DNA of 63,950 bases, counting the filler, from Neolecta irregularis DAH-3 (Eukaryota): assembly GCA_001929475.1 (NCBI GenBank). It is 16 parts of 16 records of this genome, joined end to end, with 100 filler letters (N's around TTAATTAATTAA, not from the genome) between each part and the next. Parts side by side here need not be neighbours in the genome. Positions count along the whole stretch, not along the records: positions 45,633 to 50,284 come from LXFE01001242.1; 15 more parts are not named here. One strand, given 5' to 3'. This document shows positions 47,908-48,560 of the stretch, piece by piece. The translations under genes were made by a program, and so were the position numbers. Below the pieces are notes generated by a model. The model made no database searches. It was not told the origin of the DNA and saw only the letters and a program-made list of their open reading frames with translations. The first letter of the stretch is position 1; each line of letters begins with the position of its first letter.

Positions 47908-48560
47908 GGAAAAGATATCTTTTGGCACTGAAATTGCCCTTGAAACCACCATCGGTGGTTCTGATCCGAAACCACTACTGAGAGGGACTGGCTGACTGCG
48001 AAAATTACCTACTCTACACAAGTAAACCTTCAATTCATCCAGCAATTCCTCCTCAAGCAATATCGGAAGGATGAGCAAGTTCTTCAAGGTATTATTCTGA
48101 TCGACTGCTGGCCAATACCAACTACCAGGGCTTATGGCACTCGAAAAGTTTTGACTATCAAGCGGTTGATGAAGAAAAGTTCAATTAGTACCACATTTCC
48201 AATGGAAGAGGACGGCGAGACAAAAACCATTAGCATACAACACTATATGAAGATGGCTATAACAAAGATATCTGATATCCACAGCTTTTCTGTTTGTTCT
48301 GCCATTCTTCGGTGGCTCACATATAGGCGTTCAGAGTACCAAAGGAGATATCGTTCCCCTTGAGTTCTGCATCGTGCATCCCATATAATTCATGCATTTG
48401 AAGACTCTCTAAGCTTAGGGTCAATGCTACACTTGAGTTATAGCCCATGCGCTCAAGGACAAGCTCAAGATAACCGTGTTGAGATGACTGCCGATCTTAA
48501 GCCATGGTTCGTCAAAGTCTTGAAACCTTAAGGGATAAATGCAAATAAATACCTCAATAT
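47908..48560 (+). pseudogene. ago: Argonaute gene fragment (end of N domain joined to PAZ and start of L2), internally deleted, with introns, stops and frameshifts
   Basis: AKITYSTQVNLQFIQQFLLKQYRKDEQVLQ|GLMALE; KVLTIKRL..STTFPMEEDGETKTISIQHYMK/YNKDI*YPQLF|CVQSTKGDIVPLEFCIVHP..GQ.Y; GINANKYL. Confidence 0.75.

Follow-up and report, generated by a model that had tools for sequence, protein, structure and literature searches.

The stretch analysed here, 63,950 nucleotides from Neolecta irregularis DAH-3 (hereafter the window), contains a patchwork of Argonaute gene pieces downstream of a Restless-like hAT transposase. Fifteen linkers of 100 nt each, of the form N44-TTAATTAATTAA-N44, were found between 14722 and 62727 (e.g. 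45533–45632 and 50285–50384). The window is thus a pseudo-molecule of 16 contigs, and features on opposite sides of a linker are not implied to be linked in the genome. We restricted the context of the Argonaute stretch to its own contig (45633–50284; 4652 nt). On this contig, the patchwork lies between the transposase stop codon (47166–47168) and a true hAT 3′ terminus at 49917, which is the position proposed in an earlier inspection of the DNA without database searches (the sequence-only reading). The composite region described there was retained insofar as the Argonaute stretch, the transposase and the hAT terminus share the contig, whereas anything outside it is an artefact of concatenation.

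The Argonaute pieces were delimited with two proteins, P0001 and P0002, and the hAT end with a related complete element found on a contig named L001, all of which are described below. The features of the contig are the following:

45633–47168, plus strand: last 511 codons of a Restless-like hAT transposase open reading frame (ORF), stop at 47166–47168, 5′ part lost at the contig end
47169–47239, plus strand: start of the 3′ non-coding region, about 70 nt, weakly collinear with the 3′ region of L001 and with 49758–49830
47240–47907, plus strand: CT-rich minisatellite array with irregular periods of 21–96 nt
47906–48142, plus strand: N-domain piece, P0001 residues 106–172 (tblastn E = 1.2e-19; identities 18/22, 30/40 and 3/4)
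48142–48433, plus strand: PAZ piece, P0001 residues 300–350 and P0002 residues 271–345 (tblastn E = 2e-24)
48436–48561, plus strand: PIWI piece, P0002 residues 623–660 (tblastn E = 2.6e-7, sub-region 2.2e-9)
about 48558–48780, plus strand: MID piece, P0002 residues ~447–508 (tblastn E = 9.4e-7, sub-region 1.2e-10)
48781–48873, plus strand: AT-rich spacer of 93 nt
48874–49711, plus strand: GA-rich minisatellite, 27-nt unit, about 29 copies (TRF; repeat families D1, D3 and D4)
49727–49757, plus strand: possible second, diverged transposase end and stop, weakly indicated by PEPYEDD* versus PEPYTDD* at 47145–47168
49758–49917, plus strand: hAT 3′ subterminal region and terminal inverted repeat (TIR), with TGAATC/GATTCA motifs, ending in ...GATTCATTACACCACTG at 49917
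49918–50284, no strand assigned: flanking DNA, with a minus-strand open frame (50057–50284) that runs off the contig

A mosaic of four Argonaute pieces

The Argonaute origin of the stretch was supported by several homology searches. A phmmer search against 1.84 billion representatives returned a single protein, P0001 (E = 4.7e-30), and a word-indexed protein search confirmed two of 83 candidates, P0001 (1.5e-29) and P0002 (4.3e-23). P0001, the closest protein to the mosaic, is a 360-residue protein publicly annotated as 'Protein argonaute [Neolecta irregularis DAH-3]', in which Pfam recognises ArgoN (residues 26–175), ArgoL1 and PAZ. P0002 is an unnamed protein of 676 residues from a JGI source that contains all six Argonaute domains, including PAZ (231–351), ArgoMid (423–498) and Piwi (514–664). 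Over the comparable residues, the mosaic is identical to P0001 at 97 of 117 positions and to P0002 at 87 of 117. When both proteins were compared with the whole window by tblastn, only the Argonaute stretch matched at E < 0.1, the sole further match (E = 0.71) lying at 2393–2500. The homology extends to the ArgoN, PAZ, MID and Piwi domains. As for the Argonaute/PAZ search by which the sequence-only reading wished to be judged, Pfam gave only a weak PAZ match on the raw ORF (E = 0.066), whereas the matches to real proteins were strong. The peptides quoted in that reading were also recovered, QVNLQFIQQFLL..VLQG and TTFPMEEDGETKTISIQHYMK in the frame 47965–48363 and KGDIVPLEFCIVHP in 48263–48388.

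A further search with P0002 among proteins of 371–1183 residues yielded seven with E ≤ 1e-20; apart from P0002, the closest was from Saitoella (38%). No full-length Neolecta Argonaute of 371–1183 residues appeared in this search, a weak negative given its limitation by shared words and length. Among metagenome contigs searched with P0002, none of the 64 pattern matches was confirmed.

The segment had first been placed at 47908–48560. This interval is indeed Argonaute-derived, but the real stretch runs from 47906 to 48780, that is, about 875 nt instead of 650, and extends about 220 nt further to the right. Similarly, the N-domain end followed by PAZ was correctly described, but PIWI and MID pieces follow, in the order N-PAZ-PIWI-MID. 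As MID precedes PIWI in the gene, the order of the mosaic is scrambled.

Each piece is damaged. The N piece has a 1-nt frameshift near 47970 and retains an intron of 40 nt (48089–48128; GT..AG). In the PAZ piece we found a 1-nt deletion at 48257, a TGA codon at 48273–48275 and a retained 35-nt intron (48292–48326; GT..AG). The PIWI piece carries a frameshift near 48501 and a TAA codon at 48546–48548, and the MID piece a gap of five residues, a TGA codon at 48769–48771 and a probable intron remnant at 48557–48604, whose ends would be GT..AG in parent-type sequence. At the junction between N and PAZ (48142), the two pieces are joined directly and out of frame, and P0001 residues 173–299, corresponding to the L1 linker and the first half of PAZ, are gone. 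Both the missing linker and the stops and frameshifts had been noticed from the sequence. Nowhere is the full N-L1-PAZ-L2-MID-PIWI architecture present in a single open frame, with L1, L2 and most of PIWI absent. Given the lost and reordered domains, the three stops, the at least three frameshifts and the out-of-frame junctions, the stretch is a pseudogene mosaic and not a gene: a dead, non-coding patchwork of four Argonaute pieces. An additional PIWI-like bit at 48823–48879, resembling P0002 residues 610–627, was discarded because the match was not significant (E = 14). We detected no signature of repeat-induced point mutation, the TA/AT and (CA+TG)/(AC+GT) indices being the same in the transposase, the mosaic and the window as a whole.

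The probable hAT carrier and the sequence between stop and terminus

The transposase frame contains the hAT C-terminal dimerisation domain (Pfam Dimer_Tnp_hAT, PF05699; 3.9e-14) and has 292 homologues at E ≤ 1e-5, including a 'restless-like transposase' of Pochonia. It had been called intact; the frame is open for 511 codons, yet it is truncated by the contig end at 45633. Among contigs of prokaryote genomes, a search with the nearest full-length relative retrieved L001 (4078 nt), which bears a complete related element of 2.7 kb (884–3578). Its TIRs (884–900 and 3562–3578) are 17 nt long and 94% complementary, its transposase comprises 764 codons without interruption (1090–3381), and about 195 bp separate the stop from the terminus. 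The window transposase and that of L001 share 71% amino acid and 70% nucleotide identity, with a non-synonymous divergence (dN) of 0.21 and saturated synonymous divergence (dS). Although L001 is filed as a bacterial metagenome-assembled genome (Chryseolinea sp.), its element is a fungal-type Restless-like hAT, and the contig is probably eukaryotic DNA that was mis-binned. By eye, the 8-base stretches that flank its TIRs on the outside (ATAATCTT and CTGCGAAC) do not form a duplication.

Comparison with L001 located the 3′ end of the window element. Positions 49901–49917 (GATTCATTACACCACTG) are identical to the L001 3′ TIR (GATTCTTTACAGCACTG) at 15 of 17 positions, so that the family TIR is present, at the 3′ end only. 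Upstream of and across this point, 49812–49847 and 49866–49918 match the L001 3′ subterminal region (3474–3509, 83%) and TIR, TGAATC motifs are common to both subterminal regions, and the window 3′ end also matches the L001 5′ TIR on the opposite strand. We also compared Logan contigs of two public sequencing runs from the same study (X1 and X2; kind guessed as 'DNA?') with contig 45633–50284. Both runs contain the Argonaute stretch, for which no RNA run is listed. Four X2 contigs reach 49917 and then diverge from one another (agreement 0.53), which looks like the end of a repeated element. Together, the TIR match and this divergence identify 49917 as a true hAT 3′ terminus, in agreement with the sequence-only reading. 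The first 8 bases beyond it (49918–49925) read AGAGGCAG. For the open frame in the flanking DNA (50057–50284), an Atlas search returned Ascomycota hypothetical proteins only, TRI12 being found in 12% of one cluster, which we regard as a lead only.

The distance from transposase stop to terminus is 2749 bp in the window versus about 195 bp in L001, which leaves about 2.5 kb of extra DNA in the window copy. Besides the mosaic, this DNA includes the CT- and GA-rich arrays. Related arrays were found in other contigs of the window, at or near contig ends (41682–41867 and 62820–62883, the latter within 62728–62890). They recur there and draw very many Logan contigs from both runs, which points to an abundant dispersed family. 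Pfam found no family in the array ORFs on either strand. A 43-nt segment with GT..AG ends just past the transposase stop (47182–47224) is skipped by a 2566-nt X1 contig, which joins 47181 to 47225, extends the sequence by 683 nt beyond the upstream end of the contig and has seven other differences from the window. The skipped segment may be an intron in the 3′ untranslated region if X1 is cDNA, or the contig may represent a deletion allele.

In Foldback-type elements, a middle segment lies between long opposite arrays of short tandem subrepeats. The Neolecta locus resembles this arrangement in having a middle segment between oppositely oriented arrays; unlike in Foldback-type elements, its arrays are not true inverted copies. 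Their compositions are inverse, and a comparison of 47170–47907 with 48781–49917 gave a single inverted match of 25 nt at 88%, on which grounds a high-identity foldback element was rejected. The predicted fold of 47230–49720 has an energy of −993.5 kcal/mol with 512 CT–GA pairs. Eight shuffles keeping the composition of each region gave −969 to −1019 kcal/mol and 435–497 such pairs. Since the energy of the real fold is no better than that of the shuffles, the apparent hairpin is a matter of composition.

Genomic parent and origin of the mosaic

The retained introns (48089–48128 and 48292–48326) indicate copying at the DNA level, as had been proposed from the sequence. The P0001 model enters the same PAZ intron with a near-identical peptide: its end reads ...YPQLFCSFCHSSVAHI, and the window at the same place reads ...YPQLFCLFCHSSVAHI*. 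In P0002 this intron is spliced (...LFCVQSTKGD). As P0001 stops within intron sequence, the parent gene is represented in public by a truncated model.

Sequence of the parent type was found among the X2 contigs. Parent-like variants span the intron positions 48092, 48124 and 48295, and parent-like Logan contigs have an additional A at 48257. At the N–PAZ junction (48142), the letters upstream of this base translate to FVTHRQEQGR in two X2 contigs, and the letters downstream of it translate to NNL in two others, in both cases the P0001 sequence without interruption. At 48568, another X2 loose end has parent-type sequence upstream. The loose ends at 48142 thus place a parent of intact type in this sample; the copy in the window derives from genomic DNA by deletion and rearrangement. 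As the contigs on both sides end or begin on base 48142 itself, at most about 1 nt is shared at this junction. Over 47929–48089, a parent-like contig shows 15 differences and one gap in 161 nt with respect to the window; the mosaic is thus not young. From 47999 to 48747, three to six variant contigs per site were found in X2, those reaching 48142 being parent-type there. This number suggests several Argonaute-like sequences in the sample, whether paralogues, fragments or strains.

Most junctions of the locus were bridged by Logan contigs without differences. The transposase/CT-array junction is crossed by X2 (45765–47499) and also by record 1 of X1, the CT-array/N-piece junction by X1 (47529–47950) and X2 (47532–47950), the PAZ-PIWI-MID-GA array junctions by X1 (48327–49103), the MID/GA-array junction by X2 (48573–49103) and the GA-array/3′-end junction by X2 (49555–49894). 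On the mosaic, X1 contigs cover 47529–47950, 47929–48089 and 48327–49103 with zero or one difference. Among the contigs compared, exact cover is missing for 47950–48573 in X2 and for 48090–48326 in both runs, which is not evidence of absence, and among the X1 and X2 contigs listed, none bridges 49917. As the runs may include the assembly's own reads, bridging serves as a consistency check and not as independent proof.

On balance, we consider it moderately probable that the mosaic is filler DNA, acquired through template-switching repair in the non-coding 3′ region of a Restless-like hAT element and now neutral. Capture within a hAT element is plausible, the 5′ end of the element lying outside the contig. 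The pieces would have been copied from genomic DNA of a P0001-like host Argonaute gene. Repeated template switching during the repair of a double-strand break, either within the element or at it, would have laid down DNA from unlinked places, comprising both arrays and four pieces that are not adjacent in the gene, one of which is also misordered. In the same repair, the element's own 3′ end would have been partly duplicated, and the mosaic, coding for nothing, would have remained as neutral cargo. Tight out-of-frame joins, unlinked patches and a partial duplication of the 3′ end are the pattern expected of such break repair.

Several observations weigh against this account. The contig carries only the 3′ end of the element, with neither a 5′ TIR nor an 8-bp target-site duplication seen on it, so that transposase and terminus may not belong to a single element. 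The two ends taken as duplicated (47145–47215 and 49727–49830) are only weakly alike, with a local alignment score of 26 against a shuffle maximum of 25 (n = 300), so that another hAT copy may be the source of the 3′ end. Both arrays belong to a family that is abundant and dispersed in the genome, and the region could be a repeat island. In neither run does an exact-match contig cover 48090–48326, which includes the N–PAZ junction. Sharing of the internal junctions by another locus was not demonstrated. In one X1 contig, 48557 and 48604 are linked in mosaic order across the PIWI–MID boundary, the intervening letters not being known. Finally, X1 and X2 come from one study, one of them possibly being the source of the assembly, and do not constitute independent support.

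The main alternative is a repeat island of independent origins. An Argonaute duplicate may have decayed in place between the arrays, by deletions and one rearrangement, with two different hAT copies inserted or truncated independently, no capture at all and no movement as a unit. Weak likeness of the two transposase ends is what different elements would give, the arrays occur without hAT sequence at both of the other sites mentioned above, and the contig belongs to a large set of short ones without placement. The age of the mosaic, as judged from its differences from the parent-like contig and its residue identity with P0001, is likewise compatible with decay in place. However, four non-adjacent pieces that together make up less than 0.9 kb, from a gene at least 3 kb long, tightly joined and with one of them misordered, fit a patchwork better, and the block occupies exactly the place that ~195 bp fill in L001, from the stop codon to a complete 3′ end. 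We therefore regard in-place decay as possible but rather doubtful.

A wrong joining of Argonaute, hAT and minisatellite reads into the 4652-nt contig is very unlikely. The window does consist of concatenated short contigs, and 48090–48326 with the N–PAZ junction is covered only by parent-like variants; all other junctions, however, were bridged with no differences by a different assembler in two runs. Moreover, the mosaic shows numerous differences from the parent type, together with its own stops and frameshifts, which reads of the parent would not give, and the public gene model P0003, identical to the window transposase frame, is located on a contig with precisely this length of 4652 nt.

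Elsewhere in the window, the next contig (50385–56540) carries ordinary host genes, and a tandem array with a unit of about 22 nt (similar to gagacatgttgtagtctgtgca) at 63868–63950 continues past the window end. The host genes include:

51032–51658, plus strand: tRNA-intron endonuclease domain (9e-18)
53587–54882, minus strand: family-2 glycosyltransferase (1e-8)
55798–56540, plus strand: UDP-glucose/GDP-mannose dehydrogenase, N-terminal domain (1.8e-20)

Regulatory potential and relation to known systems

The sequence-only reading had also raised the possibility that the fragment acts as an anti-silencing decoy. In a broader form, read-through transcripts from the transposase gene, with the Argonaute stretch flanked by partly complementary arrays, would give rise to small or antisense RNAs that lower host Argonaute, either as a counter-defence of the element or as a host-side regulator comparable to plant siren loci. 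Some observations on transcription are in line with this idea. X1 contigs skip three short stretches, two of which (47182–47224 and 48292–48326) have GT..AG ends; the second corresponds to the PAZ intron, in an X1 contig bearing the parent's letters. The third (~48558–48603) has TA..CA ends as reported and overlaps the intron remnant at 48557–48604. From the two GT..AG skips, which are precise and of intron size, X1 would seem to hold cDNA, the run itself being labelled 'DNA?'. Transcription would then include the 3′ region of the transposase, portions of the mosaic and the parent. In plants, gene fragments beside hAT or Helitron pieces at siren loci can methylate related genes in trans (10.1101/2021.06.10.447945). 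Nevertheless, the decoy proposal was not supported. The copy is degenerate, and its divergence from the parent restricts perfect 21–24-mers. Only a single inverted match, of 25 nt, connects the arrays; in a hairpin, the mosaic would be placed in the loop instead of the stem, and the energy of the fold is inside the shuffle range. Rfam gave no matches on contig 45633–50284. We consider functional cargo of this kind highly improbable, and have still less confidence in its fullest version, in which the pieces would lie between opposite minisatellites in the transposase 3′ untranslated region of a still-coding element in this early-diverging ascomycete, and the composite, transcribed, spliced and multicopy, would feed small or antisense RNAs damping host Argonaute, turning silencing on its own effector.

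Gene capture by hAT elements has precedents. hAT-mediated transduplication of histone H3 in Dothideomycetes, the nearest case among fungi, is reportedly the subject of a further, separate study. Fungal hATs that transduplicate histone H3 have been described from the Dothideomycetes Pyrenophora tritici-repentis and Pseudocercospora fijiensis and, like the locus studied here, these are transposase-bearing elements with host gene sequence between their termini (PMC6710886). In that case, a whole intron-less coding sequence (a transcript or retrocopy) was amplified to tens or hundreds of copies (PMC6710886), whereas here four intron-bearing fragments of one gene, derived from a genomic copy, are scrambled and dead.

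In plants, Ds elements can contain filler DNA, sometimes genic and intron-bearing, for which an origin by error-prone repair after excision has been proposed, and capture of gene fragments was rated rare for hAT elements in the same source (PMC3260210). Like our locus, maize Ds2 and Ds-like elements belong to the hAT superfamily and have foreign filler with intron-bearing pieces from an unlinked donor; unlike it, they are non-autonomous plant elements (PMC3260210), whereas a long open transposase frame and two minisatellite arrays within the filler are found here. Template-switching break repair has also been proposed for Pack-type capture (PMC8903248). Pack-TYPE elements (Pack-MULE, Pack-CACTA and Pack-hAT) have coding-gene fragments between class II ends (PMC8903248). 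In Neolecta, where only the 3′ TIR is on the contig, such fragments lie between it and the transposase, but the element described here is fungal and bears a transposase ORF. The Pack-type label considered in the sequence-only reading therefore does not strictly apply, as the 511-codon open frame upstream of the cargo on the same contig is at odds with a non-autonomous element. Finally, Brassica siren loci also combine dead gene fragments with hAT-derived sequence, but they act through small interfering RNAs by plant RNA-directed DNA methylation (Pol IV, CLSY3), which is absent from fungi (10.1101/2021.06.10.447945).

Among the titles listed in the literature searches, no earlier report of a transposon-borne Argonaute fragment was found, and supplements may list further captured genes. 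The fungal hAT gene capture that we found in the literature is that of histone H3, taken as a transcript (PMC6710886). The Argonaute mosaic of Neolecta is most likely an inert pseudogene fragment. As its cargo derives from an RNA-silencing effector, it nonetheless raises a simple and testable question, namely whether a transposon-borne Argonaute fragment affects silencing. If the origin by template-switching repair is true, the locus would be a clear example of repair-mediated acquisition of filler DNA outside plants, in a transposase-bearing fungal hAT element.

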